Shown in pieces: positions 7,453-28,256 of a DNA stretch of 32,000 bases. Where the stretch lies: the NCBI RefSeq assembly GCF_000025925.1, contig NC_014033.1:2310001-2342000 (forward strand), written 5' to 3'. The DNA is from Xylanibacter ruminicola 23 (GTDB lineage Bacteria; Bacteroidota; Bacteroidia; Bacteroidales; Bacteroidaceae). Below the pieces are notes generated by a model. It searched no databases and was not told the origin of the DNA. It was given only the letters and a program-made list of their open reading frames with translations. Positions within the stretch are counted from its first letter, which is position 1. Every line of letters begins with the position of its first letter. The position numbers and the translations under genes are program-made.

Positions 7453-8706
7453 ATGAAACTACTAAAACTACTATTCTCAGCTACCCTACCACTTCTGAGC
7501 ACGAGCAATACTTTTGCTCAGAAGTACGTAGGTGGCGATATCTCCATGCTACCCAAATACGAAGAGGCTGGCGTGGCATATAAGGATCAAGCAGGTAATA
7601 CAGTAACTGATGTACTGGCATTCTTTAAGCAAGAAGGCCTGAATGCTATGCGTGTGCGCTTGTTTGTCGACCCGAGCAAGGACAACGACAAGGCCGTATG
7701 TCAGGATCTGGAGTATGTAAAAACCTTAGGCAAGCGCATTAAGAACGCGGGCTTAAAACTAATACTCGACTTTCATTATAGCGACACCTGGGCCGATCCT
7801 GGCAAACAGTGGACACCCGATGCGTGGAAATCGCTTACTGACGAGCAACTGAACACCAAGATTTACGAGTACACCAAAGATTGCTTGGAGCAGTTGACAG
7901 CCGCAGGGTCAACACCCGACTTTATCCAAACAGGCAATGAGATTTCGTTCGGCATGCTATGGGGCACCAAAGCAGTAGCTGATGGCAATAACACCAATCG
8001 CTGTTATACCAACTCGCCCGCAGCCAACTGGACGCGCTTTATCAGCCTATTGAAACAGGCAGGCAAGGCTTGTCGCGAGGTGTGTCCTGAGGCCAGAATC
8101 ATTATCCATAGTGAACGTACCCCAGATACCGATGTGCTTGCAGATTTCTTCGACCGTATGAAGACAGCCTCGCTCGATTTCGATATCATCGGTCTGAGCT
8201 ACTACCCTGCCTATCATGGCGATCTGAACCAACTCGAAGCGGCCATCACAACCTTGGAGAACAAGAATTATGGCAAGGACATCATGGTGGTAGAAACTGG
8301 CTACAGCTATGCATGGGCATTAAGCGAGACCACATTCGATTATAGAGCCACCTACCCTTACAGCGAAGAGGGCCAGCGACAGTTTACCGCCGACCTTGTG
8401 ACGATGCTGAACAAGCACGAATCAGTAAAGGGCCTGTTCTGGTGGTGGATGGAAGATAACGGAGAAAAAGGTGTTACTGATGGTTGGTGGAACGCAGCCT
8501 TATACAATCACAAAACAGGGCAACCCTACGCAGCCTTCTACGAGCTGAAGAACTTTGCCAACAGCAGTACCGGCATACAAGGTGTTAAGAATGGTAGATG
8601 CGAGGATTGTGCATGGTACTCGATGGATGGGAGGCGATTAGCCAGCACGCCATCCAAAAACGGCATATACATCAAGAACAAACAAAAAGTAGCTTTTCGC
8701 AAATAG
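7453..8706 (+). CDS. Arabinogalactan endo-beta-1,4-galactanase, glycoside hydrolase family 53, with a short T9SS-CTD-like tail
   Basis: It has a signal peptide and GH53 hallmarks: GGDISMLP, NAMRVRLFVDP, DFHYSDTWADPGKQ, QTGNEISFGMLW and MVVETGYSY. Confidence 0.85.
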   Translation: MKLLKLLFSATLPLLSTSNTFAQKYVGGDISMLPKYEEAGVAYKDQAGNTVTDVLAFFKQEGLNAMRVRLFVDPSKDNDKAVCQDLEYVKTLGKRIKNAGLKLILDFHYSDTWADPGKQWTPDAWKSLTDEQLNTKIYEYTKDCLEQLTAAGSTPDFIQTGNEISFGMLWGTKAVADGNNTNRCYTNSPAANWTRFISLLKQAGKACREVCPEARIIIHSERTPDTDVLADFFDRMKTASLDFDIIGLSYYPAYHGDLNQLEAAITTLENKNYGKDIMVVETGYSYAWALSETTFDYRATYPYSEEGQRQFTADLVTMLNKHESVKGLFWWWMEDNGEKGVTDGWWNAALYNHKTGQPYAAFYELKNFANSSTGIQGVKNGRCEDCAWYSMDGRRLASTPSKNGIYIKNKQKVAFRK

Positions 8707-8731: not shown

Positions 8732-10063
8732 TTAGAAGTTCAAATCCTTACCTCGGTAGAACTCTAACAGGGCCTGCTGGTAGAGATTCTCGTATCGGGC
8801 CTGAACCAGATCCGACTCTGATTTCATATAATTATTCTTAGCCTCGTTAAACTCCGTGATAGTAGCTTTACCATTCTCGTACTTAGCCTGTACCAGATCG
8901 AAGGCATCCTTCGAACTCTTAACAGCCTCAGCAGAGCTCTGAGTCTTGGTCTGCGCATTCAGGGCATTATAGTACACCTGCTGAATCTCCTTATACAGGG
9001 TTTTCTTGGTGTTGTCGAGCTGCAGCTGCTGATTAGCCTGATCTACACGTGCACTACGAATGCGATTCCGGGTAGAGAAACGGTTAAAGATAGGCACACT
9101 CAGATTTAAGCCGATATACTGACTGAAGTTGTTCTCCAACTGCTTACCCAAACCATCTGACTTGAGACCTGAAGTGGTGTAGTAGTTAGTACCCAAACCG
9201 CCACTGAGCGAGAGTGTAGGATAGTAACCTGCCTGAGCAATCTTAATGCTATGAGCAGCACCCTTCAGTTTTAACTGCTGTGAGAGAATCTCTGGTTTGA
9301 TACCAAGCGCCTCTGCATAAACCTGATCAGGAGTAACAATATTAACCAGATTGGCAATCATATCCAAATCTTCTTTGGTTGGGCGATTAATTGCGAATCC
9401 CTCAGGTGTATCAAGTTCCAGCAGTTGGGTTAGCGTCAGGACGGCCAGACGCATATTGTTATCTGCCTGAGTAGCAGTCAGCTTACTGTTGGCCAGAGTA
9501 GCTTTCTGCTGTGAGAGTTCAACACCACTGGCCTTACCATTATCAACAAAAGCCTGAAGTCGAGCCACCTGAGCAGAGTCGATTTCAATCTGGCGATGAG
9601 CCACATCAGCCATCTCCATATCGTACAGAATCTGCACATAAGCCTGAGCCACCTGCATGCGGATATCGTTCTTAGCCTTCTCCAGATCAGCAGTAGCTGC
9701 TTCGAGATTCAGCTGATTCAGTTTAATCTGGTTGGGGATCTCGAAACCTGTGAACAAAGGTACACTTGCGCCCAACTGCAGCGATGTGCTACTGGTATTC
9801 TTATTGGTATAGGTATTATCCATTGTCAAACCACGTCCGAACGAGAAGTTCTGACTTACACTACCGCTCAAATCTGGCAAACGCGAGTTCTTGGCAGTAG
9901 AGAGTTGTATCTCCTGCTGGCGGCACTGGTTCTGCTGCTGCTTAATGCCGATATTATGCTCCACTGCATATTCACAGCATTCACGCAAGCCCCATGCCTT
10001 CTGGGCACTAGCAGTACCAAGGCCCAGCGAACCAATCATCAATGCAAAAACATATCTTTTCAT
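8732..10063 (-). CDS. TolC-family outer-membrane efflux protein
   Basis: The 443-aa ORF has a signal peptide and two repeated halves of coiled Q/A/L-rich helices plus beta segments, typical of OEP/TolC. It is the last gene of the efflux operon. Confidence 0.85.
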   Translation of the reverse strand: MKRYVFALMIGSLGLGTASAQKAWGLRECCEYAVEHNIGIKQQQNQCRQQEIQLSTAKNSRLPDLSGSVSQNFSFGRGLTMDNTYTNKNTSSTSLQLGASVPLFTGFEIPNQIKLNQLNLEAATADLEKAKNDIRMQVAQAYVQILYDMEMADVAHRQIEIDSAQVARLQAFVDNGKASGVELSQQKATLANSKLTATQADNNMRLAVLTLTQLLELDTPEGFAINRPTKEDLDMIANLVNIVTPDQVYAEALGIKPEILSQQLKLKGAAHSIKIAQAGYYPTLSLSGGLGTNYYTTSGLKSDGLGKQLENNFSQYIGLNLSVPIFNRFSTRNRIRSARVDQANQQLQLDNTKKTLYKEIQQVYYNALNAQTKTQSSAEAVKSSKDAFDLVQAKYENGKATITEFNEAKNNYMKSESDLVQARYENLYQQALLEFYRGKDLNF

Positions 10064-10069
10064 AATCGC

Positions 10070-11182
10070 TTATTTTTCATTATCGTCTGTAACAATCTCT
10101 GGGCCACGTACCTTATCCTTGGCAGTTATACCCTTCTTAATCTCAATGTTCACACCGTCAGAGAGACCTGTTTCAACAAAAGTGCGATCGTAGGTTTTAT
10201 TTTTGCCTTTACCTTTGATCACGTAAACAAAGGTGCTGTCGCCACTAAACTCGATGGCGCTTTCTGGGATGCAGAGCACCTTGTTGGCCTTGTCCAACAC
10301 GATTTCGGCATTAGCACTGTAGCCAGAACGGATTTTTCCACCCTCTACAAGTTTTACAGCTGCCTTAATCTCAAACTGGTTGGTTCCGTTGCTCTCGATA
10401 GCCTTTGGCGAGATGTATTCCAATGCAGCATCAAACTTCAGGTCCTGCAGGGCACCAATCGTAATTTTCATATTCATGCCGTTAACCAACTGTCCTACCT
10501 CAGTCTCATCGATATTACCACGGAAAATCAAATCCTTCATATTAGCCACTGTGGCAATCGTGGTACCATCGTTAAAGGTATTCGACAGGATAACCGAATT
10601 ACCCACCTTAACAGGGATATCGAGAATAACACCGCTAATGGTAGAACGGATGAGAGTTGAAGAAGCTTTAGCATTCGACTTCGACACACCATCGCGCACC
10701 ACTTCGAGAGCATCCTGTGCAGCCAGCTTTTCGTGCTTGGCCTGATTCAGGCTAATCTTAACCTTATCAAACTCATCAGCACTCACCAGTTTCTGGTTAA
10801 AGAGGTTCTGCTCACGCTCGAAATCAGTCTGAGCCTGCTTCAGGTTGATCTCAGCCAGACGTACACGCATCTCAGCACTCGACAGCTGGGCCATATCAGG
10901 AATCACCTTAACCTTAGCTATCACATCGCCAGCGTTCACATAGTCGCCAGGCTCTTTCAACAATTCTGAGATGATACCAGAGATCTGGGGTTTGATATTC
11001 ACCTCGTTACGGGGCTCAATCTTACCTGTAATAATGGTGGTTTTCTGGATGCTGTCGAGCTTTGGAGTAAACTCGTTGTAAACAACTTCCTTGGGCTGGC
11101 TCTTCTGCCACAGGAACACGAATGTTCCGATGAAAATCAACGCGATAATAGCGGCGATAATCAGTTTGCTGTACTTTTTCAT
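10070..11182 (-). CDS. Periplasmic adaptor (membrane fusion protein, MacA/HlyD family)
   Basis: The 370-aa ORF has an N-terminal TM anchor, a lipoyl-like motif (GDYVNAGDVIAKV), a coiled-coil hairpin and beta-barrel domains. Confidence 0.85.
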   Translation of the reverse strand: MKKYSKLIIAAIIALIFIGTFVFLWQKSQPKEVVYNEFTPKLDSIQKTTIITGKIEPRNEVNIKPQISGIISELLKEPGDYVNAGDVIAKVKVIPDMAQLSSAEMRVRLAEINLKQAQTDFEREQNLFNQKLVSADEFDKVKISLNQAKHEKLAAQDALEVVRDGVSKSNAKASSTLIRSTISGVILDIPVKVGNSVILSNTFNDGTTIATVANMKDLIFRGNIDETEVGQLVNGMNMKITIGALQDLKFDAALEYISPKAIESNGTNQFEIKAAVKLVEGGKIRSGYSANAEIVLDKANKVLCIPESAIEFSGDSTFVYVIKGKGKNKTYDRTFVETGLSDGVNIEIKKGITAKDKVRGPEIVTDDNEK

Positions 11183-11226
11183 ACTTCTTATAGTTTTTAT
11201 TATTATATTCTATATTTTTGCTAATT

Positions 11227-12471
11227 TTACTCGTCTCTCATTGCGTCTACCGGTTTAATGCTCATGGCTCGAGCGGCAGGGGCTAATCCAGCTAACAAGC
11301 CAAGCGAGCTTACGATAAAGGCGCAGAATATAGCCGTCCAGAAGGTCACCTGGAAGTGAATACTCACGATGCCATCTTCTGTATTGGCCATTTCGAGCAT
11401 CTGCAGTATCATGACGGCAAACAGGATGCCGCTCATACCCGCCACAAGCGTTAGCACAATGCTCTCGCTGATAATCTGCGATAGGATCATCTTAGGGGTA
11501 GCACCGATGGCACGACGGATACCGATCTCTGTGGTACGTTCCTTAACCGTTACCATCATGATGTTCGACACGCCTATGGCACCAGCCAAAAGAGTTCCAA
11601 GACCAACCAACCAGATGAGGATATTCACACCCTTAAACAGATTATTAATCAACTGGAACATCAGTTCGGTATTAAATACAAACACCCCTTGCTCGTCAGT
11701 AGGATCCACATAGTGCGCTCTGGCCACCGTCTCACGGATACGTGGTGTGATTTTACTCATCAGCACACCTGGGCGACCAATAGCAGCAATGACGTCAACG
11801 GCGTTACCACGATTAAAGGCTGCCTTCATCATCGTGATGGGAATGGTGACTCTTTCTTCTGATCGACCACCAATAGAAATACCGCCTGCACTATAATCGA
11901 CACCCACCACCTCGTAATAGGTGGAATCCACACGTATTTTCTTTCCGCAAGGGTCGCCACCTTCCTTAAACAGGTCCTTGTAGATTTTTTTACCAATCAC
12001 GCACACCTTGCGTTGTTCCTGTATGTCCATCTCGTTGATGAAACGACCGTAGTACATCTTTGGTGCGATGATTTTCACCATCTCAGGCACGGCACCCTGC
12101 ATATTAGGTGTGGTCTTCTGGTCGCCATAGTAGGCCGTCGAGCCACGTCCCATCAGGATAGGAGCTACAGCTTCCAGTTCAGGAATCTGCTGTTTCAGGC
12201 GTTCCACATCCTTATAATCCATATACCAGCTACGCCCTTTACGGAACCCTTTATAGGGTTTCGAGGTCTGCTCGGCACCAACAATCACTGTATTCTGCGC
12301 AAAGCCTTCGAAATTGCTATACAACTTCTCCTTCACGCCCTTTCCGCCTCCCATCAGGGCAACAAGCATAAACACGCCCCAGAACACACCGAAACCGGTG
12401 AGGAACGAACGCGACTTGTTTCGCGTCAGCGTGTCGATGATTTCTCTGTATGAATCTATATCCAGTCTCAT
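11227..12471 (-). CDS. MacB/FtsX-family ABC transporter permease
   Basis: The 414-aa ORF has TM1, a large periplasmic domain and a C-terminal FtsX 3-TM bundle (VKERTTEIGIRRAIGA). Confidence 0.85.
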   Translation of the reverse strand: MRLDIDSYREIIDTLTRNKSRSFLTGFGVFWGVFMLVALMGGGKGVKEKLYSNFEGFAQNTVIVGAEQTSKPYKGFRKGRSWYMDYKDVERLKQQIPELEAVAPILMGRGSTAYYGDQKTTPNMQGAVPEMVKIIAPKMYYGRFINEMDIQEQRKVCVIGKKIYKDLFKEGGDPCGKKIRVDSTYYEVVGVDYSAGGISIGGRSEERVTIPITMMKAAFNRGNAVDVIAAIGRPGVLMSKITPRIRETVARAHYVDPTDEQGVFVFNTELMFQLINNLFKGVNILIWLVGLGTLLAGAIGVSNIMMVTVKERTTEIGIRRAIGATPKMILSQIISESIVLTLVAGMSGILFAVMILQMLEMANTEDGIVSIHFQVTFWTAIFCAFIVSSLGLLAGLAPAARAMSIKPVDAMRDE

Positions 12472-12502
12472 TTGACTATTTCACTATTTACGATTTTACA
12501 AT

Positions 12503-13759
12503 TTAATCTGCGCGAAGTGCCTCAATGGGGCGGATTCTACTTGCTTTATAGGCTGGAATAAGTCCTGCGATAGTACCTGCAATCACCATCACCAGTGTGG
12601 CCTCGATACAAACATCCAGTCCCACGGTAGGGTTAACAAACAGTGTAAGCTTCTCAACTCCCAGGTCGGTAACCTCATGCCCCAGCGTTGCGTCCATATA
12701 CTCATTAGCAAACACACCACACAGCATACCTACGTAGCCAAACAGGGTGGTGATAATAACACTCTCGACAATAATCAGTCGCAGGATGCTCCAAGGCTTT
12801 GCACCAATAGCCTTACGGATACCAAACTCGTGGGTGCGCTCCTTAACGGTGATGAGCATGATATTACTTACGCCCACGATACCAGAGAGCAGTGTGAAGA
12901 GTCCGATGACCCAAAGGAAAGTATGGATGATATCTATTCCTTTCTCCATCTGCTGGCTTTGAGCATAGTTATTCCATATCCAGATGCCGCGATCATCCTC
13001 AGGGTGAATCTGGTGCATACCATTCAGTCGGCGACGATAGTCCTTCTCAAAGGCCTCGTTGGCATCCTCAGAGGTCAATCCCTTAAACGTAAACTCGATG
13101 CTGCCCAGACTAGGTGTATCGGCGCCATAAATACTCTTGATCGCAGTGTAAGAAGAATAGGCTCTGCCATTACCTTCGCCACGGCTCTTGTAGATGCCAA
13201 CAACCTTGAACGAGATATCGCCCACCTTGATATACTTGCCCAACAACGTTTTATAGTCCTTAGGTTCCAACTCCTTAGCCTGGTTATCACCGAGCACAAT
13301 CACCTTACGGCGATCCTTCAGGTCGATATCATTAATGAATCGGCCACACAGCATGTGCTCTTTGACAATCTTGGTATGAATAGGATGCACACCTGCGATG
13401 CGGATATTCATGTAGTTCTCGCCATAGCTGGCAGTGCCACTGGTAAAATAGTTGGCTCCCACCTCGTCAATATTCTCAGTAAACTCTGTCCGAGTGGCTT
13501 CCAGGTCCTTCACGTTCAACTGTATATCGCGCCCTTCCTTCAAGCCTTTATAGGGCATCGAAGTCCAACCGCCATCAACCTCCATCGAGTTGGTCAGGAA
13601 GTCGCCGTTCATCTTCATCGTGGCATTGATGAGACCGTTTCCGGCTCCCAACAGCACGATGATCATAAAGATGCCCCACGCCACAGCAAATCCCGTGAGC
13701 GTAGTACGAAGTTTATTCCTTCGCGCTGTCTGCCATATTTCAGTTATTATATCGTGCAT
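12503..13759 (-). CDS. MacB/FtsX-family ABC transporter permease (paralog)
   Basis: The 418-aa ORF has the same architecture and motif (VKERTHEFGIRKAIGA). Confidence 0.85.
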   Translation of the reverse strand: MHDIITEIWQTARRNKLRTTLTGFAVAWGIFMIIVLLGAGNGLINATMKMNGDFLTNSMEVDGGWTSMPYKGLKEGRDIQLNVKDLEATRTEFTENIDEVGANYFTSGTASYGENYMNIRIAGVHPIHTKIVKEHMLCGRFINDIDLKDRRKVIVLGDNQAKELEPKDYKTLLGKYIKVGDISFKVVGIYKSRGEGNGRAYSSYTAIKSIYGADTPSLGSIEFTFKGLTSEDANEAFEKDYRRRLNGMHQIHPEDDRGIWIWNNYAQSQQMEKGIDIIHTFLWVIGLFTLLSGIVGVSNIMLITVKERTHEFGIRKAIGAKPWSILRLIIVESVIITTLFGYVGMLCGVFANEYMDATLGHEVTDLGVEKLTLFVNPTVGLDVCIEATLVMVIAGTIAGLIPAYKASRIRPIEALRAD

Positions 13760-13769
13760 AATCTTTATT

Positions 13770-13840
13770 CTTTTGCAACGGACTACAGGACTTTACGATT
13801 TTTCCTTAGTCATTAAGTCGTGTTGTCCGTTGCTAAAAAT
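13770..13840. repeat. REP-like imperfect palindromic element inside the efflux operon
   Basis: The inverted arms gcaacggac (13775-13783) and gtccgttgc (13825-13833) extend to a stem of about 21 positions with 3 mismatches. One arm matches 30555-30585 at 24 of 26 positions. Confidence 0.75.
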
Positions 13841-13841
13841 A

Positions 13842-14561
13842 CTACTTCATTAAACCTCCGCTGCCAAAAGGACTAGCATTATGATCGAGATTCTCTTCTA
13901 TCTGACCTATGACACCATCCTTGATATGTACAATCTTGTTGGTTTCATTAGCCACACCGCTCTCATGAGTTACCACTACGATGGTCATGCCATCCTCTTG
14001 GTTCAGCTTCTTCAGCAGCTGCATCACCTCCACAGATGTCTTCGAGTCGAGTGCACCTGTAGGCTCATCGGCCAGGATAATCTGTGGACGGGTGATGAGT
14101 GCTCTGGCTATTGCCACACGCTGTTTCTGTCCTCCCGACAGTTCGTTGGGGTAATGTTCGGCCCAATCGGCCAAGCCCAGCTTATCCAGATATTCCATCG
14201 CCATCTGGTGACGCTTCTTTCTGGATACCCCTTGGTAGAATAATGGCAACTCAACGTTTTCCACGGCGGTCTTGAAAGAGATGAGATTAAAGCTCTGGAA
14301 AATAAAACCTATCATCTTGTTGCGATACTCGGCAGCCTTACGCTCTGAGAGGTTCCAGATGGGAGTTCCGGCGAGCTCGTAGCTCCCTGAGTCGTAGTTA
14401 TCCAGAATACCTAAGATATTAAGCAGCGTGCTCTTACCCGAGCCCGAAGCACCCATGATGCTGACGAACTCACCCTTTGCGATGTCGAGCGAGATACCCT
14501 TCAGCACATGCAGTGGCTGGGCACCCTGATAGGTCTTGTTGATGTCTTTTAAATGTATCAT
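13842..14561 (-). CDS. ABC transporter ATP-binding protein (MacB/LolD-type)
   Basis: It has Walker A GASGSGKST, signature LSGGQKQR and Walker B ILADEPTGALD. Confidence 0.9.
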   Translation of the reverse strand: MIHLKDINKTYQGAQPLHVLKGISLDIAKGEFVSIMGASGSGKSTLLNILGILDNYDSGSYELAGTPIWNLSERKAAEYRNKMIGFIFQSFNLISFKTAVENVELPLFYQGVSRKKRHQMAMEYLDKLGLADWAEHYPNELSGGQKQRVAIARALITRPQIILADEPTGALDSKTSVEVMQLLKKLNQEDGMTIVVVTHESGVANETNKIVHIKDGVIGQIEENLDHNASPFGSGGLMK

Positions 14562-14602
14562 TGTTATTTATAACTTAGTTTATTTGTATGTTTTGACGTA
14601 GC

Positions 14603-14965
14603 TTACTCGCCAAAAGTTGCATTATATGCATTTTTAACATCTTCTAACGTGATGCCTAACAGCTGCATCTGGCGGAATAATTCTGGCAGTCGCTCTTTCA
14701 CGAACTCCTGCTTGCGCGCCTTCAGAATCTGCTGTTTGGCACCTGGAGTAACAAAGTATCCCAGTCCACGCTTGTTGTAGATGATTTCCTCGCGTGCCAA
14801 CTGTTCATAGGCTTTTACAGCGGTATTAGTATTCACCTCGAGCAGCACGGCATACTCACGTACGCTGGGGATGCGATCATCGTCTTTATATACACCCGAG
14901 AGGATCTCCTCGCACAGCCTGTCGGCCATCTGGATGTAAATCGGTTTATCATTTGTAAAAGTCAT
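14603..14965 (-). CDS. GntR-family transcriptional regulator, YtrA-like short subfamily
   Basis: The 120-aa ORF has a winged HTH (IPSVREYAVLLEVNTNTAVKAYEQLAREEIIYNKRGLGYFV) followed by only a short helical tail. Confidence 0.85.
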   Translation of the reverse strand: MTFTNDKPIYIQMADRLCEEILSGVYKDDDRIPSVREYAVLLEVNTNTAVKAYEQLAREEIIYNKRGLGYFVTPGAKQQILKARKQEFVKERLPELFRQMQLLGITLEDVKNAYNATFGE

Positions 14966-15794
14966 AATTCAACCACTTATTAGTTATTAATTCAAATCCT
15001 TTGAAGATACGGAACGATAACCAGTAATTTACAACAGAGAAGACAGCGAAGAATGCTGTAAGTACATAGGTCATGGCACCAACCCCCTCTTCCATCACAT
15101 CAGCTGTATAGTAAGTATAAAACATGCTTCCGCCATGATGACGCTTAAACCATACAAATGCTGTAATGCCTGCCACAAGTACAATGCTACTGATTACGAA
15201 TGCATACTTGCGGAACAGCGTGCCACCAAGGGTATAGAAAGAATGCAACCATACGAGTCCACTCACCAGAAATGCCAGAGACATCAGGCGATAACCCAAT
15301 GAATGATATGAACTTATACCATCAAATGTCATCATCTTAACCACTTCCGGAAAAACAAACGAATTCCACGAATCACCATAGAACAGAGCACGGAACACTA
15401 CACGCAGCGTATCGCCTACGATAAACGACAGGTGCATCGTCAGGAATCCACATACAGTAGAGAATATGGTGGCTGCCAGAAACTTCTCTAAGTTGGTAGC
15501 AGGCAGCATCAGGAATGCCTGGCGATTTGGTTTCTTATCCAGCTCGACAAACAGGTTACAAATACCTGCCACTACACCAATAATGATGAAAACCACAAAG
15601 AATCCAGCCAGGCCACCAGTATGGGTTCCTACAGGTTCTGTAGAACGGAATATGCCCAACACCATCATCTCCCCCAAGAAAACACCCAGTATGAGTGTCA
15701 AGGCCCACATCAGCTTCGAGTGCATGTTTACACTGATCATCCAGCGCAAAGCCTTTCCAAATCTATTAATATCGAAACTATTCATAACTTTCAA
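14949..15794 (-). CDS. Six-TM membrane protein of unknown family, putative permease partner of the ABC ATPase
   Basis: The 281-aa ORF has about 6 hydrophobic segments. It is a paralog of the upstream gene, sharing motifs INRFGKALRW, LMLPATNLEKFL and VNYWLSFRIF. Confidence 0.7.
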   Translation of the reverse strand: MKVMNSFDINRFGKALRWMISVNMHSKLMWALTLILGVFLGEMMVLGIFRSTEPVGTHTGGLAGFFVVFIIIGVVAGICNLFVELDKKPNRQAFLMLPATNLEKFLAATIFSTVCGFLTMHLSFIVGDTLRVVFRALFYGDSWNSFVFPEVVKMMTFDGISSYHSLGYRLMSLAFLVSGLVWLHSFYTLGGTLFRKYAFVISSIVLVAGITAFVWFKRHHGGSMFYTYYTADVMEEGVGAMTYVLTAFFAVFSVVNYWLSFRIFKGFELITNKWLNYDFYK

Positions 15795-16591
15795 ATGTTT
15801 ACAAATTTACCAATGTTCTGAGTGCGGCAGAAAATCCTGTACGACAACCAGTAGTTAACGATGGCCCAAATGCCGTAAACGGCATCAGAGATATGAAGCA
15901 GCGTAATAGCATCACCGTGAATCATATCAAACTGATTTTCGTAAGAAATAGGGAACAACCATGTTTGTACCATCGACAAGAAGATGAGCACCAATAAGGT
16001 GAAAATCCACGAGTACTTGTGCGAACGGAAGAAGGTGGCACCAAGGGCGAAACACGACTGAAGCCAAAGAAACAAAATAATCAGGGCATTAATAACCGTA
16101 ACCTTCTTTGAGCCAATGGCTTCCCAATTAACAGTGAAAGGATTTAAGCGACCGAACAGAGCGCCTGTTACAGACTGCGGATTGTTACCTATCAGCCAGT
16201 TAAAAACATACTGCACCAAGTCGGCTCCAAAATAAGCTACAACTATAATACCTATTACAAAAATCCAAGTGGCATAGCGCATCAGGTATTTCTCGAAATT
16301 CGAGGCTGGCAACAACAACAGAGCCTGCATATCGTGTTTCCCTTTCATGCTGTTAAACATCATCGCTGGGCCTAAGGCTACTTGAATAAAAAACATCATC
16401 ACCACAACCACGCAACAAGGTTTATAACCTGTATCAGCACCTTTCAGCCAATAAAAGCTGGTAGTAAAAAACAGGAACACCAGCGTAAGAAACACAAACA
16501 TCTGGAGCAGCGAGCGCATGTAGTAGCTCTTGTCGTTAGTGAGCGACCAACGAGCCACCTTTGCAAACCTATGTATATTAAACTGTATCAT
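15791..16591 (-). CDS. Six-TM membrane protein of unknown family (paralog)
   Basis: The 266-aa ORF has about 6 hydrophobic segments and motifs IHRFAKVARW, LLLPASNFEKYL and VNYWLSYRIF. It overlaps the next gene by 4 nt (ATGA). Confidence 0.7.
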   Translation of the reverse strand: MIQFNIHRFAKVARWSLTNDKSYYMRSLLQMFVFLTLVFLFFTTSFYWLKGADTGYKPCCVVVVMMFFIQVALGPAMMFNSMKGKHDMQALLLLPASNFEKYLMRYATWIFVIGIIVVAYFGADLVQYVFNWLIGNNPQSVTGALFGRLNPFTVNWEAIGSKKVTVINALIILFLWLQSCFALGATFFRSHKYSWIFTLLVLIFLSMVQTWLFPISYENQFDMIHGDAITLLHISDAVYGIWAIVNYWLSYRIFCRTQNIGKFVNI

Positions 16592-16610
16592 AAGATTTAA
16601 TGTTTAATCT

Positions 16611-17426
16611 CTAAATTTTACCCTCGTTTACAGCATTAAACAGCAACTCCAAATTAACCTGAGTTTCAGCACTATCCTCCTTGCGTGGTGCAATCACAGC
16701 ATTACCCTGAAGCGAAGGCTCGGCATAAAGCACATCGTCCATCTCGGCAGGTGTGCGATACTCAAAAGTAAACTTCTCCTGGATATCAGCCACACTGGCA
16801 TTCAGCAACAGCTTCTGTGGACTCAAGATAAGGATATGATCCAACAGCGATTCCACATCGTGCACCTGATGGGTTGAGATTATCAGCGTGCGATCGCCAG
16901 TCATATACTGGGTAACCACCTTACGGAACTGACTCTTCGAAGGGATATCCAGTCCGTTGGTAGGCTCGTCCATCAGTAGCACACGGGTGTTGGTAGCCAA
17001 GGCAAAGGCCATAAACACCTTTTTCTTCTGTCCCATCGAGAGGGCATTCAGTTTCAGGTCGGTGGTCAGTTCAAAATCCTTCAGACAGCCCTCCAGAACG
17101 GTTGTGCTGAACAAGGGATAGAAGGGGCGGTTGATCTTTACATACTCATCGAGCGACATAGCGGGCAGGTCGAACTCCTCAGGAACGATAAAGATATCCT
17201 GCAGTGTTTCAGGGCGGCGCAGTTTGGTCTCGATACCATCAAAGCTTACAGTACCCTTCTTGGGGCGCAGCAGTCCAGCAATCAGGTAAAGCAGTGTACT
17301 CTTACCTGTACCGTTCTTACCCAGCAGACCATAAATATTATCCTGCTTCAGTTCCAGACTGAAATCATCGAATACCAGGTTCTTACCACCTGCGTACTTA
17401 AAACTGATGTTGTTTACCTCGATCAT
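16611..17426 (-). CDS. ABC transporter ATP-binding protein (YtrB-like) with a C-terminal extension of about 60 aa
   Basis: It has Walker A GKNGTGKST, a degenerate signature LSMGQKKK, Walker B LLMDEPTNGLD and an H-loop STHQ. Confidence 0.9.
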   Translation of the reverse strand: MIEVNNISFKYAGGKNLVFDDFSLELKQDNIYGLLGKNGTGKSTLLYLIAGLLRPKKGTVSFDGIETKLRRPETLQDIFIVPEEFDLPAMSLDEYVKINRPFYPLFSTTVLEGCLKDFELTTDLKLNALSMGQKKKVFMAFALATNTRVLLMDEPTNGLDIPSKSQFRKVVTQYMTGDRTLIISTHQVHDVESLLDHILILSPQKLLLNASVADIQEKFTFEYRTPAEMDDVLYAEPSLQGNAVIAPRKEDSAETQVNLELLFNAVNEGKI

Positions 17427-17464
17427 AATTCTATTTAATTTTAATGTTCAATGTTACGTGTTAT

Positions 17465-17488
17465 AGTGTACCACTTTAATAGTACACT
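17465..17488. promoter_or_regulatory. Candidate GntR/YtrA operator: inverted repeat AGTGTAC-N10-GTACACT
   Basis: The 7-bp perfect arms are 17465-17471 and 17482-17488. The site lies immediately downstream of the minus-strand -7 box and 39 nt upstream of the ATG of the ABC operon that encodes the GntR regulator. The GT..AC half-sites fit the GntR family. Confidence 0.5.
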
Positions 17489-17489
17489 G

Positions 17490-17497
17490 CAAAAGTA
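17490..17497 (-). promoter_or_regulatory. -7 promoter box (TActTTTG) for the ABC/GntR operon
   Basis: The plus strand reads caaaagta, which is tacttttg on the minus strand, 64 nt upstream of ATG 17426. Confidence 0.5.
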
Positions 17498-17598
17498 GAA
17501 TAAAAACAAATACGCTCCAAGCTTTTATGCAAAAATCTGCAATCTATTAACACTATTTAGCACTTCAACCCTCACGCGTACATAACTAATAAACAGGG

Positions 17599-17661
17599 AG
17601 ATAGTACGGCACTATCTATGAGATACTCGTAACTTATCTGGTAGATATCCGGCACTTATCT
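17599..17661. repeat. Three tandem 19-bp palindromic sites AGATA-N9-TATCT at an exact 22-bp period
   Basis: The sites are 17599-17617, 17621-17639 and 17643-17661. All six half-sites are perfect and every spacer is exactly 9 nt. Confidence 0.9.
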
Positions 17662-17678
17662 GCCCACGAAGTTACGGT

Positions 17679-17737
17679 TACTATTAATGGTAGCGATTGC
17701 TACATTTAATGGTAGCAAAAATTCCCATTAATGGGAA
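17679..17737. repeat. Three ATTAAT-centred palindromic sites at an exact 22-bp period
   Basis: The sites are tactattaatggta (17679-17692), ctacatttaatggtag (17700-17715) and the perfect 16-bp palindrome ttcccattaatgggaa (17722-17737). Their centres are at 17685.5, 17707.5 and 17729.5. Confidence 0.85.
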
Positions 17738-17750
17738 CAATGGCAGCACA

Positions 17751-17936
17751 GTGTAACACTGTAACATACGACAGGAGAGAGAAAAAATATGGTCAAGATA
17801 GAACAAGTAATAGCTTATAAGATTATTTATATATTATAATATATAAATAATTAATATATAATATTATTATAATAATAGATATTATACAACCATGACCAAA
17901 CTTTTTTTCGTTCCTGTCGTAAAATTAACGTTACAC
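17751..17936. repeat. 186-bp imperfect inverted repeat enclosing an extremely AT-rich palindromic core
   Basis: Arm pairs are gtgtaac (17751-17757)/gttacac (17930-17936), a perfect 10-mer tacgacagga (17767-17776)/tcctgtcgta (17912-17921), and tggtca (17790-17795)/tgacca (17893-17898). The core 17815-17886 has 70 of 72 positions A/T, with a perfect 30-bp palindrome (17822-17851) and a 16-bp palindrome (17862-17877). Confidence 0.9.
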
Positions 17937-17961
17937 TCTTGGTAGATTGAAATATTTTTTG

Positions 17962-17969
17962 TACCTTTG
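17962..17969 (+). promoter_or_regulatory. -7 promoter box (TAccTTTG) for the 470-aa P-loop gene
   Basis: The context is ttgtacctttgcag, 26 nt upstream of ATG 17995. Confidence 0.6.
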
Positions 17970-17994
17970 CAGTGTAATCTTAAAAGACTGAATA

Positions 17995-19407
17995 ATGACA
18001 AAAGAGACTAACTTAAATGACCGTTCAATCATCGAACGACAGATGCTATTCGCAGGTAAAGAAATCGAGAAGCTGATGGATGTATATCCCTGCTTACGCG
18101 AGGTGTGCAAGGGCCTTAAAACCGAGGCCTACCCTGCTGCTATGTTTGCATCGTCGGCCTTCCTGGGTACGCTGATGACACGTTGTACCTATCGTTTTTA
18201 CCATCGCCCTCAGGAGTTGCGTCGCCTCAACTATAGCGTGTTCATCATTGGCGACCCTGGTTCAGGAAAATCGTTTGTAACCAATCTCTACGAACTTTTA
18301 GCCGGTCCTATCCGCAAAGTATCTAAGGAGGGGCAGAATGCCGAGAATCGCTATCGTCGCAAATACAAGGAGTGGCTGGACAACGGACAGAAAGGCGATG
18401 GCCCCAAGAAGCCCCAGGTAATTATCCGTACCCACCCTGCCCGTACATCCAACAAGGTGTTTATCGAAGACATGAAGCATGCCGTTGAGATGGTGGATGG
18501 CCAGGAGATGCACCTGCACATGCTCTCGTTCGACACAGAGCTCGACAATGCCATCAATCAGCAGGGCGAGGCATGGAGCAACAAGACCTATCTGGAATTG
18601 AAGGCTTTCCACAACGAGGAGGATGGACAGTTCTTCTCGAACTACGACTCAGAGCTTTGCGACTTCAATGTGTTTTGGAACTTTGTTTATACAGGCACAC
18701 CCCGCGCTCTGAAAAACAAGGTGAATGCCAACAACGTAGGCAATGGATTCTCAACCCGACTGGCAGCTATTCCCATGCCCTCAACCCACTTCGAGATGCT
18801 GAAACGTGAGGAGTTGGAAGATGCGAACGTAGAGCCTGAGGAGCACAAAACCCTGCGCATGTGGGCCGAGCGATTAGACTCTACCCATGGCGAACTGCCC
18901 ATTGGCAAACTGGTAGAAAGCACCTACGAATGGGCCAAGGAGCACATGGAAGAAGCCGAGGAGGACCAGTCGAAAACCGACGAACTGTTGCTTAAGCGTG
19001 TACCCTACTATGGCATCGCCGTAAGCGTACCTTTCATTATGATGCGCCATTGGGATGAGTGGCAGCAGCACCACACCCTCACTCTCGACGACACCGACCT
19101 GTACTTGTGCCGTTTGGCCATGAACATCCAGTTCGCATGCCAGCGCCATTTCTTTGGCAAATACTGGGATTACTACTTTATGCAGCAGGCTAACTGCATT
19201 AGCTATCCCACCCGCAAGCGCCACACCAAACTGATGCGTTCGCGTTACAGTGTTCTACCTGATGAATTCAGCGTGCCTTCCATGCAGATATTCCTAGGCG
19301 TGTCCCAGCGTACCGCCGAAAAGATGATAGAGCGCTGGCTCAACGATGGCTACATCAAGCGCATAGAACCCGGCAGGTACCAGAAATTATATCTCGAGCT
19401 AACATAA
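17995..19407 (+). CDS. Orphan P-loop NTPase with a C-terminal winged-helix-like domain (family uncertain; possibly DUF3987/SF3-helicase-like)
   Basis: This 470-aa ORF has its own promoter. It has Walker A GDPGSGKS (aa 86-93), a candidate Walker B LHMLSFDTE (aa 174-182), and a C-terminal HTH-like segment FLGVSQRTAEKMIERWLNDGYIKRIEPGRYQK. The ORF call is solid; the functional assignment is tentative. Confidence 0.75.
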   Translation: MTKETNLNDRSIIERQMLFAGKEIEKLMDVYPCLREVCKGLKTEAYPAAMFASSAFLGTLMTRCTYRFYHRPQELRRLNYSVFIIGDPGSGKSFVTNLYELLAGPIRKVSKEGQNAENRYRRKYKEWLDNGQKGDGPKKPQVIIRTHPARTSNKVFIEDMKHAVEMVDGQEMHLHMLSFDTELDNAINQQGEAWSNKTYLELKAFHNEEDGQFFSNYDSELCDFNVFWNFVYTGTPRALKNKVNANNVGNGFSTRLAAIPMPSTHFEMLKREELEDANVEPEEHKTLRMWAERLDSTHGELPIGKLVESTYEWAKEHMEEAEEDQSKTDELLLKRVPYYGIAVSVPFIMMRHWDEWQQHHTLTLDDTDLYLCRLAMNIQFACQRHFFGKYWDYYFMQQANCISYPTRKRHTKLMRSRYSVLPDEFSVPSMQIFLGVSQRTAEKMIERWLNDGYIKRIEPGRYQKLYLELT

Positions 19408-19498
19408 TTGCTTATTGCAATTAAACTTTCTACCACTTACAACATCTAAGATTTACAGCATTATCTAACAATTACAACTATATCAAACAAACAGTGAA

Positions 19499-22108
19499 AT
19501 GAAAAGGCTTTTAACTTTAACCATCGCGGCGATGATGGGGGCAAGTGTGTTTGCCCAGGTTAAGTATCCGTATCTGGATACAAAGTTATCAAACAAAGAG
19601 CGCGTTGAGAACTTGCTGAGTCTGCTCACACCCGAGGAGAAGGTGGGACTGATGATGAACAAGTCGATCTCGATCGACCGTCTGGGCATCCCTAGCTACA
19701 ACTGGTGGAGCGAGGCTTGTCATGGTGTGCGTCAGGATGGCTATACGGTTTATCCACAACCCATCGGCATGGCAGCAGCCTTTAATGCACAGCTGTTCTA
19801 CGATGTATTCTCGCAGGTGTCCGACGAAGCCCGTGCCAACTGGAACCGTACCGACCACAACGATCCTAAGCTGTTTAACGTGCCCATGGGCGTTACCTAT
19901 TATCCTGGCAACCCTGAGCTTACGTTCTGGTGTCCGAATGTAAATATCTTCCGTGACCCTCGCTGGGGACGCGGACAGGAAACCTGCGGCGAGGACCCTT
20001 ATCTGAATGCCGTATTAGGCGTACAGACCGTATTGGGTATGCAGGGTAACAACGACAAATACTTTAAAACCCACGCCTGCGCCAAGCACTATGCCGTGCA
20101 TAGCGGTCCAGAGCCCTTGCGCCACTCTATGAACGTAGAGCCAACCAACCGCGACCTGTGGGAAACTTACCTGCCAGCCTTTAAGGCACTGGTAAAGAAA
20201 GGTAACGTGCGCGAGGTGATGTGCGCCTACCAGCGTTTCGAGGGTAAGCCCTGCTGCACCAGCGACCGTTTGTTGATTGATATCCTGCGTAACAAGTGGG
20301 GCTACGACGCCATCGTACTGACCGACTGCGACGCTATCAACAACTTCTTTAATCGTGGACAGCACGAAACCCATAAGGATGGCTTGTCGGCCTCGGTTGA
20401 TGCTGTGTTGAACGGTACCGACCTGGAGTGCGGTAAGGTATTCATGTCGCTGGTTGAGGGACTGAAGAAAGGCCTCATCAAGGAGAGCGACCTTGACAAT
20501 CATCTGCGTAAGACCCTGATGGGCCGCTTTGAGTTGGGTATGTTCGATCCTGCCGATATGCTACCTTGGGCCAAACTGGGTGCCGATGTGATTAGTAGCG
20601 AGAAGAACGATGCGATGGCTGTTCAGGCTGCACGCGAGAGTATGGTACTGCTGGAGAACAAGGCTGGTATCCTGCCACTCTCAAAGAGCATCAAAACACT
20701 GGCAGTGCTTGGTCCTAATGCCGACGATGTGAACATGCTGAATGGTAACTATGGTGGCACACCTACTGCCGCCCACCAGCACTCACTGCTCTCAGGTATC
20801 AAGGCTGCAGTACCTGGTGCCAAAATCATCTATAACAAAGCTTGCGAACTGAACGACGAATATACCACCATCCACCATCTGCAGGACTTTAACGATGGCA
20901 AGGGTGTGAAGGCAGAGTTTTATAATAATAAGGAATTAGCAGGCGAACCTGCCAAGACTGATTACTACAACGAGTTGAACTTCTCGACCTTTGGTGCCTG
21001 GGGATTTGCTCAGGGCGTGAATCGCGATACCCTCAGTGTTCGCATCAGCGGTAAGTACACCTCAACTTTTACTGGCGAAATGAAGTACACCCTGACTACT
21101 GACAACGGCTACGTGCTGAAGGTAAATGGCGAGGTAGTAGAAGAGGCTCAGGCAGGTGGCCGTCGTGGTTTCTTCGGATTTGGTCGCAAGCCCCAGTACA
21201 AGTCGTTCCCTGTTGAGGCAGGTAAGACCTACGACGTAGTCATCGAGTACAAGCATGGTAACGGACAGTTTGCTATGCTGCGTGGCGATATCTGCGAGCG
21301 CAACCTGGTTGACTTTACCGACCTGGCCAACCAGGTGAAGGAGGCCGATGCTATCGTGATCATCGGTGGCATCTCAGCCCAGATGGAAGGCGAAGGTGGC
21401 GACAAACAGGACATTGAGCTGCCAAAAGTTCAGCAGATGTTGGTAAAAGCTATGCACAAGACTGGCAAGCCTGTTATCTTTGTAAACTGCTCAGGTTCGG
21501 CCATTGCCTTTGGTAGTGTCGAGGGCGAGTACGATGCTCTGTTGCAGGCCTGGTATGCTGGTCAGGGTGGTGCTAAGGCTTTGGCCGAGGTGCTGTTTGG
21601 CGATTACAACCCTGGTGGAAAACTGCCCGTAACCTTCTATCGCTCTAACAACGACCTGCCCGATTTCCTCGACTACTCGATGAAGAACCGCACCTATCGT
21701 TACTTTACAGGTGTGCCTCAGTATGCATTCGGCTATGGTTTGAGCTACACCACCTTTGCGCTCGGCGATGCCAAGATTTCAGCCAAACAGATGAAAAAGA
21801 ATGGTAAGGTAACCCTGACCGTACCTGTAACCAACACTGGCAAGCGCGAGGGAACCGAGACCGTTCAGGTATATGTAAAGCGTCTCGATGATGCAGGCGC
21901 ACCTATCAAGGCCCTGAAGGGTTTCCAGAAGCTGAATCTGAAAGCAGGTGAGACACAGAAGGCCACCATAACACTGGATGGCGAGGCATTCGAGTATTAC
22001 GATGAGATGATCGACGAACTGGCCACAAAGGCAGGTCGCTATCAGATTCTTTACGGTACCTCATCAATGGATAAGGACCTGAAAACCATCGATTTTGTTG
22101 TTAAGTAA
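19499..22108 (+). CDS. Glycoside hydrolase family 3 beta-glucosidase/beta-xylosidase with an inserted PA14 domain
   Basis: The 869-aa ORF has a signal peptide and GH3 motifs (NIFRDPRWGRGQETCGEDP, KHYAVHSG, VLTDCDAI). A PA14-like segment (GVKAEFYNN...GKTYDVVIEYKH) and a C-terminal Fn3-like domain are also present. Confidence 0.9.
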   Translation: MKRLLTLTIAAMMGASVFAQVKYPYLDTKLSNKERVENLLSLLTPEEKVGLMMNKSISIDRLGIPSYNWWSEACHGVRQDGYTVYPQPIGMAAAFNAQLFYDVFSQVSDEARANWNRTDHNDPKLFNVPMGVTYYPGNPELTFWCPNVNIFRDPRWGRGQETCGEDPYLNAVLGVQTVLGMQGNNDKYFKTHACAKHYAVHSGPEPLRHSMNVEPTNRDLWETYLPAFKALVKKGNVREVMCAYQRFEGKPCCTSDRLLIDILRNKWGYDAIVLTDCDAINNFFNRGQHETHKDGLSASVDAVLNGTDLECGKVFMSLVEGLKKGLIKESDLDNHLRKTLMGRFELGMFDPADMLPWAKLGADVISSEKNDAMAVQAARESMVLLENKAGILPLSKSIKTLAVLGPNADDVNMLNGNYGGTPTAAHQHSLLSGIKAAVPGAKIIYNKACELNDEYTTIHHLQDFNDGKGVKAEFYNNKELAGEPAKTDYYNELNFSTFGAWGFAQGVNRDTLSVRISGKYTSTFTGEMKYTLTTDNGYVLKVNGEVVEEAQAGGRRGFFGFGRKPQYKSFPVEAGKTYDVVIEYKHGNGQFAMLRGDICERNLVDFTDLANQVKEADAIVIIGGISAQMEGEGGDKQDIELPKVQQMLVKAMHKTGKPVIFVNCSGSAIAFGSVEGEYDALLQAWYAGQGGAKALAEVLFGDYNPGGKLPVTFYRSNNDLPDFLDYSMKNRTYRYFTGVPQYAFGYGLSYTTFALGDAKISAKQMKKNGKVTLTVPVTNTGKREGTETVQVYVKRLDDAGAPIKALKGFQKLNLKAGETQKATITLDGEAFEYYDEMIDELATKAGRYQILYGTSSMDKDLKTIDFVVK

Positions 22109-28202: not shown

Positions 28203-28223
28203 GGTATATTGCTCACTTATTTG

Positions 28224-28231
28224 TATATTTG
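28224..28231 (+). promoter_or_regulatory. -7 promoter box (TAtaTTTG) for the DUF853 gene
   Basis: The context is ttgtatatttgcg, 26 nt upstream of ATG 28257. It lies inside the N-terminal extension of the track ORF, which argues for the 28257 start. Confidence 0.55.
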
Positions 28232-28256
28232 CGCCATAAACTTAAAACAAAAGCGT

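Follow-up and report, generated by a model that had tools for sequence, protein, structure and literature searches.

A 32,000-nucleotide stretch of the Xylanibacter ruminicola 23 genome (assembly GCF_000025925.1, contig NC_014033.1, positions 2,310,001 to 2,342,000; hereafter the window, in whose numbering coordinates are given unless a related locus is named) contains a gene for a DUF3987-type AAA+ helicase of 470 aa (17995-19407, plus strand) and, directly upstream, the longest gap between long open reading frames (ORFs) in the window (17427-17994; 568 bp). This gap is 69.5% A+T compared with 52.4% for the window, and separates nine minus-strand ORFs (8732-17426) from two plus-strand ORFs (17995-22108). 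An original prediction, made from the sequence without database searches, placed a candidate replication-origin or partition-like module here, combining phased iteron-like sites, an AT-rich unwinding-type element and an adjacent NTPase with a winged-helix-like C-terminus. Upon rechecking the window sequence, all DNA features that it described were found in place, as was the orientation of the genes on both sides, and its core idea of an AT-rich element adjoining an NTPase/DNA-binding protein was borne out by helicase homology and by a gene-linked inverted repeat with an AT core in at least 14 genomic contexts. Positions 17746-19407 probably constitute a compact replication module, in which a helicase that doubles as initiator is encoded next to its cognate upstream origin. 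This 1.7-2 kb cassette resembles a mobile element reduced to its replication module and residing amid ordinary genes, and not the chromosome's own origin.

A predicted helicase-initiator

The 470-aa protein is predicted to be a DUF3987-type AAA+ helicase-initiator based on Pfam, homologues and modelled structure. It matches Pfam DUF3987 (PF13148) with 21.1 bits (E = 2e-4; residues 65-293 aligned to positions 20-264 of the 364-position model), and the same domain was detected in 16 of 22 family members (E <= 0.01, best 1e-5). The P-loop of the original prediction is a Walker A motif, GDPGSGKS (residues 86-93, nt 18250-18273, plus strand), which is followed by a Walker B motif, LSFDTE (residues 177-182, nt 18523-18540, plus strand); G86, P88, G91, K92, S93, D180 and E182 are invariant in 22 sequences. 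DUF3987 proteins have earlier been predicted to be replicative helicases of mobile elements (PMC5862659), and for one DUF3987 protein, AgaPH, helicase activity has been shown experimentally; it is partnered with a BT4734-like primase-polymerase in a mobile element of Bacteroidota (PMC11724360).

The AlphaFold model of the protein has a mean predicted local distance difference test score (pLDDT) of 76 and a predicted template modelling score (pTM) of 0.72. All 11 Foldseek matches of this model to the PDB at E <= 0.001 are MCM subunits (MCM2-7 and archaeal MCM; E 3.6e-5 to 6e-4, probability 0.99-1.0), and this MCM-like fold fits helicase superfamily 6, to which DUF3987 has been assigned in the literature. 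The C-terminus (residues ~405-470, nt 19207-19404, plus strand), as claimed by the original prediction, is modelled as a winged helix-turn-helix (wHTH), including an H-H-H-beta-beta unit at residues 412-464 (pLDDT 83-94), and yields weak AbiEi-type hidden Markov model (HMM) matches, PADLOC models among them. PADLOC returned no defence-system match to the ATPase part, a PDB sequence-profile search identified no relative, and searches of NCBIfam and PHROGs gave nothing useful. Neither a DUF927 match nor a BT4734-like (PF08800) primase domain was found in the 470-aa protein, and the DNA upstream of it is non-coding, with no credible or conserved small ORF in the intergenic region.

A search of 5.8 billion proteins retrieved two groups of homologues: a clade of ~470 aa (54-98% identity; hereafter the solo clade) and proteins of ~800 aa, from ~59% identity downward (the long forms). 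In the long forms, a region matching the full 470 aa (47-53% identity across residues ~13-466) follows an N-terminal BT4734-like primase domain, and the BT4734-like_N domain was present in all six long-form homologues scanned. The window protein therefore corresponds to the helicase half of a primase-helicase, made separately. Walker A, Walker B and ~90 further positions are invariant across solo and long forms. By this homology, the cassette is probably a primase-less derivative of the BT4734-like-primase/DUF3987-helicase genes found on islands of Bacteroidales.

The ratio of nonsynonymous to synonymous substitution rates (dN/dS) is 0.05-0.11 overall and 0.06-0.08 among close syntenic orthologs, and low values (0.05-0.1) hold between strains at dS 0.09-0.29. 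As judged from these rates, the helicase gene is under strong purifying selection and its function is retained. The winged-helix segment evolves fastest, with a dN two to three times that of the ATPase, which fits the expectation for a specificity domain. One ortholog, L027 (metagenome-assembled genome RUG765), carries a ~50-nt deletion (~10110-10160) with a frameshift after residue ~37, and represents either a pseudogene or an assembly error.

An AT core between inverted arms

The centre of the candidate origin is an AT core (17815-17886), a putative DNA-unwinding element of 97.2% A+T over its 72 bp, the best segment of this length, which contains a perfect 30-bp palindrome (17822-17851) and is the sole stretch of the window with at least 94% A+T over 50 bp. 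The core is framed by a left arm (17767-17806, plus strand), consisting of an outer site TACGACAGGA (17767-17776), an A-tract and an inner site TGGTCA (17790-17795), and by a mirrored right arm (17882-17921, minus strand), consisting of an inner site TGACCA (17893-17898), a T-tract and an outer site TCCTGTCGTA (17912-17921). Both the outer and the inner site pairs are symmetric around position 17844. The arms are 75% complementary across 40 nt, and outer pairing spans 17750-17937; its outermost part is a 15-bp palindrome, ACAGTGTAACACTGT (17748-17762), which pairs with 17930-17937. Folded as single-stranded DNA, 17746-17940 reaches -29.1 kcal/mol compared with -11.1 +/- 2.5 kcal/mol for shuffled sequences (z = -7.3; 0 of 200 shuffles as good). 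DNA similarity to cassettes from other contexts begins at the 15-bp palindrome, at about -250 relative to the ATG.

This arrangement is conserved in the solo clade. Of 25 solo-clade loci, 23 possess an AT core 100-190 bp upstream of the gene, and in these it is the sole stretch of at least 94% A+T in ~20 kb, except for one repeat-type stretch in L023. The cores comprise 40-58 bp of 98-100% A+T, usually with a perfect palindrome of 30-52 bp. The loci share the order outer site, A-tract, inner site, AT core with inverted arms, Bacteroidetes-type promoter and ATG, and the bipartite plan of the arms, in locus-specific sequence, was recognized in 20 loci. Arms vary by lineage (TACGACAGGA...GGTCA; TTGGACAAAAA...ACGTCA, of which TTGGACAAAAA is the outer site of the L012-type origin; TACGACAAAA...ACGTCA; and TGCGACAAAA), each being mirrored across its own core. 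Left and right arms co-vary: the mean score of a left arm against its own right arm is 23.9 compared with 14.2 against arms of other loci, and the own right arm ranks 0-4 of 19 for each left arm (best or nearly best). As far as sequence conservation can tell, the AT core with its inverted arms, not the pair of 22-bp repeat arrays further upstream, is the conserved DNA partner of the helicase gene.

In six loci (L018-L022 and L024) the locus-specific left arm recurs as a third, direct copy (14-41 bp; for example ACTTGCGACAAAATCTCAAAAAAAGTATGTCAT in L020) 1-75 bp past the helicase stop codon, so that the gene is bracketed by direct arm repeats. The third copy is absent in the lineage of the window, where only a degenerate CACTTACAACATC is located at ~19436. 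In the syntenic L026, which is divergent (56% protein identity), an AT core with a 52-bp perfect palindrome (8939-9017) is split from the helicase gene by a ~0.9-kb insertion bearing a minus-strand RhuM-family gene (9068-9862; region 8939-9995). Many metagenome contigs with the gene are only 1.5-2.2 kb long or begin ~200 bp upstream of it (L090 1-217; contigs of P0005, P0009 and P0013). Assemblies probably break at the pure-AT palindrome, and such origins may therefore be under-represented in them.

Long-form primase-helicase islands

Ten long-form loci contain a palindromic pure-AT core between inverted arrays of three to five element-specific iterons of 7-9 bp, such as CGCACCA in L055 (five and four copies), TGTACCA in L058, CGTACCA in L083 and GTTACGC in L054. 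The candidate origins are located at L055 7243-7319, L058 5397-5473, L054 798-876, L083 170-265, L084 782-850, L076 1330-1415, L064 5100-5178, L036 1696-1774, L030 6861-6925 and L070 1401-1466. Here, other genes intervene between the AT core and the helicase domain, which follows 2.7-9 kb downstream. The long-form islands are small and lack integrases; in L055, for example, the order is origin, HIRAN-domain protein and primase-helicase, located between an AIR-synthase-like gene and one for a peptide-chain release factor (PCRF/RF-1). In L064, an AAA_14 ATPase gene adjoins the candidate origin. A different iteron-laden region (ACGGATT x3, TACGAATT x3 and CACAGATT x2, then inverted copies) was observed in L096 (370-500) and L067 (7261-7450), where it follows a conserved small ORF ending in ...RDWSDFH and precedes the primase-helicase by ~600 bp. 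No AT core was found in the 550 bp of upstream sequence of the closest long-form relative (P0056, L095).

Distribution and inheritance

Within the Xylanibacter (Prevotella) ruminicola group, to which the window belongs, the 470-aa protein is 99% identical in strain D31d and 96% identical in strain Ga6B6. In six species-level genomes (L008, L009, L010, L011, L026 and L027) the cassette is found in synteny between an ABC-exporter operon and a GH3 glycosidase gene, which indicates that it is old and vertically inherited in the ruminicola lineage; in L010, the ortholog is located on a 699-kb chromosomal scaffold amid housekeeping genes. Elsewhere, solo-clade cassettes occur in at least 14 unrelated contexts with ordinary chromosomal genes on both sides and without recombinases (e.g., L001, L004, L005, L012-L025, L090, L091 and L093), and only a minority of rumen Prevotella species have the cassette, at differing loci. 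The DNA common to cassettes of unrelated contexts extends from about -250, just beyond the left arm, to the stop codon or terminator. L012 and L013 are 94.6% identical over the cassette span and have unalignable flanks, their common DNA extending ~12 nt beyond the left arm on one side and to the terminator on the other. The claim that the locus is no recent island thus stands for the ruminicola lineage, in which it is syntenic in six genomes, but not for the cassette family, given the unrelated contexts and the two nearly identical copies with unalignable flanks.

In agreement with the original prediction, no integrase, transposase or relaxase domain was detected among the 27 window proteins scanned, and tRNA and Rfam scans of the window returned zero matches. 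Integrase, repressor and packaging genes are lacking in the window and in 14 other contexts, and neither a target-site duplication nor a terminal inverted repeat was seen at the cassette junctions. No terminal overlaps were found on short contigs when these were checked for circularity, and no extrachromosomal or circular contig was identified. Searches (tblastn) of 72,556 PLSDB plasmid records and 50,697 INPHARED phage records revealed no homologue, and the 2.9 million viral contigs of IMG/VR contained two matching loci, both long forms.

Two loci carry tRNA-related sequences close to the cassette, which are possible boundaries of old elements. In L001, the cassette terminator is followed by a sequence similar to the 3' half of a tRNA (GGTTCGAGTCC...; 7480-7540), in which ARAGORN calls no tRNA and ahead of which stands GCTTCCTGTCGGTA, similar to the right-arm site; L025 has a tRNA-Met gene (4183-4257) 60 nt downstream of the cassette. 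The L001 cassette is also flanked by toxin-antitoxin pairs (HigB/HTH and HepT/MNT).

Upstream arrays, promoters and neighbouring genes

Two arrays of palindromes are located upstream of the left arm. The first (17599-17661) consists of three tandem 22-bp units of AGATA-N9-TATCT, with perfect sites starting at 17599, 17621 and 17643, a period of exactly 22 bp. With up to one mismatch, this motif occurs six times in the whole window compared with 0.94 expected, and none of 100 shuffles reached six. The second array (17678-17738; consensus GCTAnCATTAATGnTAGC) comprises three ATTAAT-centred palindromes at 17683, 17705 and 17727. Their 22-bp spacing is as originally described, but the palindrome is perfect in the third only (TTCCCATTAATGGGAA), and the middle one has a TTTAAT centre (one mismatch). 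AGATA units were found in two to five copies in L008, L009, L010, L027 and L001 and in degenerate form in L011, and are absent from most other cassette lineages. ATTAAT-like arrays are located 5' of the AGATA array in L001, upstream in L015 and L016, and downstream of the gene in L012. Contrary to the original prediction, in which these repeats were a key origin element, the 22-bp arrays are confined to the ruminicola group and a few other lineages, their position relative to the origin shifts, and most lineages keep the gene without them. On this distribution, the AGATA and ATTAAT arrays are lineage-specific accessories of iteron-like type, variable in copy number. We also considered the AGATA array as an operator of the adjacent GntR/ABC operon. 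This was rejected, since L001 has the array and the cassette without the operon, and L011 and L026 have the operon with arrays degenerate or lacking; the occurrence in L001 indicates that the array goes with the helicase cassette and not with the operon.

In Bacteroides, promoters follow the consensus TTTG / TAnnTTTG, and a scan for sigma-70-type promoters is uninformative for Bacteroidetes. A putative promoter of the helicase gene (17940-17976, plus strand) has its -7 box, TACCTTTG, at 17962-17969, ~40 bp from the right arm, and the promoter string TTTTTTGTACCTTTGCA is kept in almost all orthologous loci. The probable promoter of the leftward ABC operon (17475-17504, minus strand; -7 box TAnnTTTG, TACTTTTG, at 17490-17497) belongs to the neighbouring genes and lies outside the cassette; this stretch is 83% complementary to the helicase promoter stretch 17955-17984. 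The leftward gene run (8732-17426) resembles two export systems, one with an ABC ATPase, two membrane proteins without a Pfam match and a small YtrA-type GntR regulator, and another with a MacB-type ATPase, two FtsX/MacB permeases, an HlyD adaptor and a TolC-like outer membrane efflux protein. In addition, a HerA-like ATPase of the FtsK/HerA clade (540 aa) is encoded at 28209-29831, 9 kb downstream of the cassette.

Chromosomal replication signatures and a local skew step

No DnaA box (TTATCCACA, up to one mismatch) was found within 17427-17994. The whole window has 11 such boxes compared with 7.5 by chance, which is not above chance, and the nearest perfect box (19750) is inside the GH3 gene. 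The raw GC skew is more negative left of the locus than right of it, and was considered as a chromosome-scale replication signal, but the difference vanishes once gene orientation is modelled. A skew inflection at the locus, which the original prediction had named as a check, was accordingly not present in the window after orientation correction (side coefficient +0.003), and GC skew at third codon positions (GC3 skew) is -0.10 left and -0.13 right of the locus. ParA, CbiA and ParB had no match among the scanned window proteins, and no RepA-type protein was found in the window, so that, despite the repeats and the AT-rich region, the locus lacks the initiator of an iteron plasmid.

At a smaller scale, we compared the GC3 skew of flanking ORFs within 3 kb right and left of the cassette in 14 independent contexts oriented on it (the window, 17745-19407, and L001, L004, L005, L012, L014, L017-L020, L022, L024, L091 and L093). 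The difference, right minus left, averages +0.17 and is positive in 13-14 of 14 contexts; 96 gene boundaries in the same loci served as control (-0.02 +/- 0.13), and 0 of 20,000 resamples reached the observed mean. The step is missing at codon positions 1 and 2, is independent of the orientation of the flanking genes and fades past 3 kb. Its polarity is the one expected if unwinding or replication proceeded outward from the cassette. The T-A step that goes with it is opposite in sign to the ordinary strand signature of these genomes, and the helicase gene itself departs from the GC3 trend. Six of eight long-form origins (the displaced L026 origin included) show the same direction, judged by eye. 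We regard this unexplained local step as a lead, not as evidence of origin firing.

Proposed mechanism and alternative explanations

Initiation of a replication module of this kind would, by analogy with the Rep protein of Staphylococcus aureus pathogenicity islands (SaPIs), start with the winged helix of each protomer reading the arm sites. One hexamer would be placed on each arm, head to head across the AT core, whose palindrome may then melt or extrude, and both helicases would travel outward while primase and polymerase of the host carry out synthesis. Protein bound to the right arm, ~40 bp away from the -7 box, might also repress the helicase gene, resulting in autoregulation. What the analysis shows is a helicase under selection, with a winged-helix tail, that is coupled physically and in evolution to an AT palindrome with mirrored sites, a type of element that serves as origin in its closest functional analogues; binding of the arms by the protein, melting of the core and firing in the present host are the steps that we infer from this analogy.

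Several observations weigh against the replication module. The DUF3987 score of 21.1 bits is below the Pfam gathering cut-off of 27, and the MCM fold matches have low TM-scores (0.29-0.37). The two sites within one solo-clade arm are unlike each other, and these arms contain no clear array of identical iterons. Furthermore, the cassette has neither a primase domain nor a primase gene, no integrase, excisionase or packaging gene is nearby, and, as circular contigs and plasmid or phage homologues are lacking, nothing shows episomal replication. The GC3 skew of the helicase gene (-0.075) is contrary to the polarity expected right of an active origin, and the closeness of the right arm to the promoter is equally compatible with a purely regulatory role.

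Such a role, in which the arms are the operator of an autorepressor, the AT palindrome bends DNA, insulates or otherwise acts upstream of the promoter, and the helicase has a task other than origin firing, such as repair, fork rescue or anti-phage defence, is the first alternative to be weighed. It would account for the right arm ending ~40 bp upstream of a conserved -7 box, for the weak likeness of the C-terminal domain to the AbiEi wHTH, which stems from an autorepressing antitoxin, for the missing primase and the missing trace of episomal life, for vertical maintenance under purifying selection as for a host gene, and for some neighbours elsewhere being toxin-antitoxin pairs or large helicases. 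The main counter-argument comes from the long forms, where the AT palindrome with its inverted iterons is kilobases away from the helicase gene, with genes in between, and therefore cannot be the operator of that gene. In addition, perfect pure-A+T palindromes of 30-52 bp with mirrored sites typify unwinding elements and not ordinary operators, and PADLOC does not match the ATPase part. We thus consider a regulation-only function unlikely, though worth keeping in view. It is quite improbable that the arms and palindrome are instead primarily the termini of a mobile cassette devoid of a recombinase, or the sites at which it recombines, with the helicase serving transfer or integration and not vegetative replication: the near-identical L012 and L013 cassettes, with sharing that stops just beyond the left arm and at the terminator, and the third arm copy after the gene in L018-L022 and L024 would fit, but the junctions lack target-site duplications and terminal inverted repeats, the third copy is missing from the lineage of the window, no circular form was found, and the locus has been stable over the long term in six syntenic genomes.

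An inert relic, the functionless last piece of a decayed integrated element, is very improbable. The solitary gene without partner genes, the frameshifted L027 ortholog and the tRNA 3' fragment and tRNA-Met gene just downstream of the L001 and L025 cassettes, suggestive of old element ends, are set against a dN/dS of 0.05-0.1 that holds even between closely related strains (dS 0.09-0.29), invariant ATPase motifs, arms and AT cores that are kept and co-vary in 20 loci, and a 1.7-kb unit that is intact in at least 14 contexts. An origin at chromosome level (oriC, or that of a second chromosome or a megaplasmid) or a centromere paired with an ATPase, the broader reading of the original prediction, has hardly any probability left. 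Locally divergent transcription, the longest intergenic region, phased repeats and the more negative raw skew on the left would suit it, but these readings are unsupported, because the intergenic region lacks a DnaA box, the raw skew difference is explained by gene orientation and GC3 skew does not change sign across the locus, the protein is an AAA+ helicase and not DnaA, RctB, RepA, ParA or ParB, and the species distribution is patchy, with the cassette at differing loci in only some rumen Prevotella; the L010 ortholog, moreover, is on a chromosomal scaffold amid housekeeping genes. A bolder extension of the replication module is that the cassette is a recombinase-less origin-helicase unit active in the chromosome, which loads its helicase at the palindrome again and again, unwinds or locally replicates a few kb outward, leaves the GC3 step and spreads itself between sites. 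Self-spreading is suggested by the near-identical cassettes with unrelated flanks and by the third arm copy bracketing the gene; as a whole, we consider this extension doubtful and a shade less credible than regulation alone.

Comparison with known replication systems

The closest parallel is found in the SaPIs, where Rep is a self-loading initiator-helicase whose primase is either fused or separate, and where the iterons of the origin, half on each side of an AT-rich centre, with at least two per side and opposed, are read by the C-terminal winged helix of Rep (PMC9371898). The window likewise has at least two opposed sites on each side of its AT-rich centre (TACGACAGGA at 17767 and TGGTCA at 17790, mirrored at 17912 and 17893), and its candidate origin adjoins the gene. 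The two systems also have in common element-specific site sequences and a hexameric AAA+-type helicase doubling as initiator via a C-terminal winged helix, although for the cassette hexamer formation and initiation are deduced from this likeness; fused (PriRep5) and separate SaPI primases mirror the long and solo forms of the cassette family. In contrast, the SaPI ATPase is DUF927 and that of the cassette DUF3987, the SaPI origin is downstream of rep and that of the cassette upstream of the helicase gene, and SaPIs are phage-induced and carry integrase, regulators and packaging genes, which the cassette lacks. Furthermore, a SaPI arm contains three to six identical iterons, whereas a solo-clade arm has two unlike sites and an A-tract, and the AT centre of the cassette is itself a long perfect palindrome.

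AgaPP and AgaPH, of an integrated element in Seonamhaeicola, represent a DUF3987 helicase from the same phylum and, as in the long-form relatives of the cassette, a partnership with a BT4734-like primase (PMC11724360). Walker A/B-dependent helicase activity of AgaPH has been shown experimentally, and the cassette protein is a predicted helicase by comparison; AgaPH bears a PriCT domain at its N-terminus and has its primase encoded by a gene of its own, and its element has an integrase, a tRNA attachment site and prokaryotic Argonaute (pAgo) cargo, whereas the window protein lacks both PriCT and a primase partner. We found no origin described for the Seonamhaeicola element. Cch of the staphylococcal cassette chromosome mec (SCCmec) and archaeal-eukaryotic MCM also combine an MCM-like AAA+ core with a subsequent C-terminal winged helix, but their sequence similarity to the 470-aa protein is undetectable, the TM-score is ~0.37, and the N-terminal OB/zinc domain of MCM is not evident in it. 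Cch is likewise a helicase inside a chromosomally integrated element of staphylococci, and to our knowledge no cognate origin has been defined for it.

Phage P4 alpha, like the cassette protein, combines a helicase and a C-terminal origin-binding domain that reads short repeated sites, and crr, a second P4 site cluster at a distance, is reminiscent of the third arm copy that follows the gene in L018-L024. Unlike the cassette, alpha contains a primase and an SF3/D5-type helicase and reads direct octamer repeats, and P4 has no long pure-AT palindrome and is a complete satellite phage. The AGATA and ATTAAT arrays, as tandem 22-bp repeats of variable copy number beside an AT-rich region, resemble iteron-controlled plasmid origins (pSC101, F, RK2 and P1 type), which have at least three direct repeats of 17-22 bp. 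In contrast to these plasmids, the cassette lacks a RepA-type winged-helix initiator, a DnaA box and partition genes, and the arrays are not conserved with the helicase gene across lineages. The units are internally palindromic and therefore suit a dimeric regulator more than a monomeric Rep.

Significance for Prevotella and the DUF3987 family

A self-loading initiator-helicase with an inverted-site origin is a kind of system already known from SaPIs; what is new is its occurrence in this helicase family and phylum, with a pure-AT palindrome and bipartite arms, as a solitary unit without recombinases. In the PMC and bioRxiv literature we found no described origins for DUF3987 helicases and no such cassettes in Prevotella or Bacteroidales. 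The cassette thus offers a concrete candidate origin design for the DUF3987 family, element-specific inverted sites around a pure-AT palindrome, and this design extends to the numerous, scarcely studied primase-helicase islands of Prevotella/Bacteroidales. If the active, self-spreading unit described above were real, Bacteroidota would have a novel type of secondary chromosomal origin, whether selfish or domesticated. The local skew step, should closed genomes confirm it, would count among the rare traces that unwinding or replication outside oriC leaves in genomes.

Prevotella/Bacteroidales dominate in the gut and the rumen, and few genetic tools exist for them. A 1.7-kb origin with its initiator would, if active, be a ready-made replicon for Prevotella vectors, and the differing site sequences suggest that orthogonal origin/initiator pairs may be available. 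For the bacteria themselves, the vertical maintenance and selection of a solitary cassette prompt one to ask which benefit a chromosome draws from a helicase-origin pair of its own.

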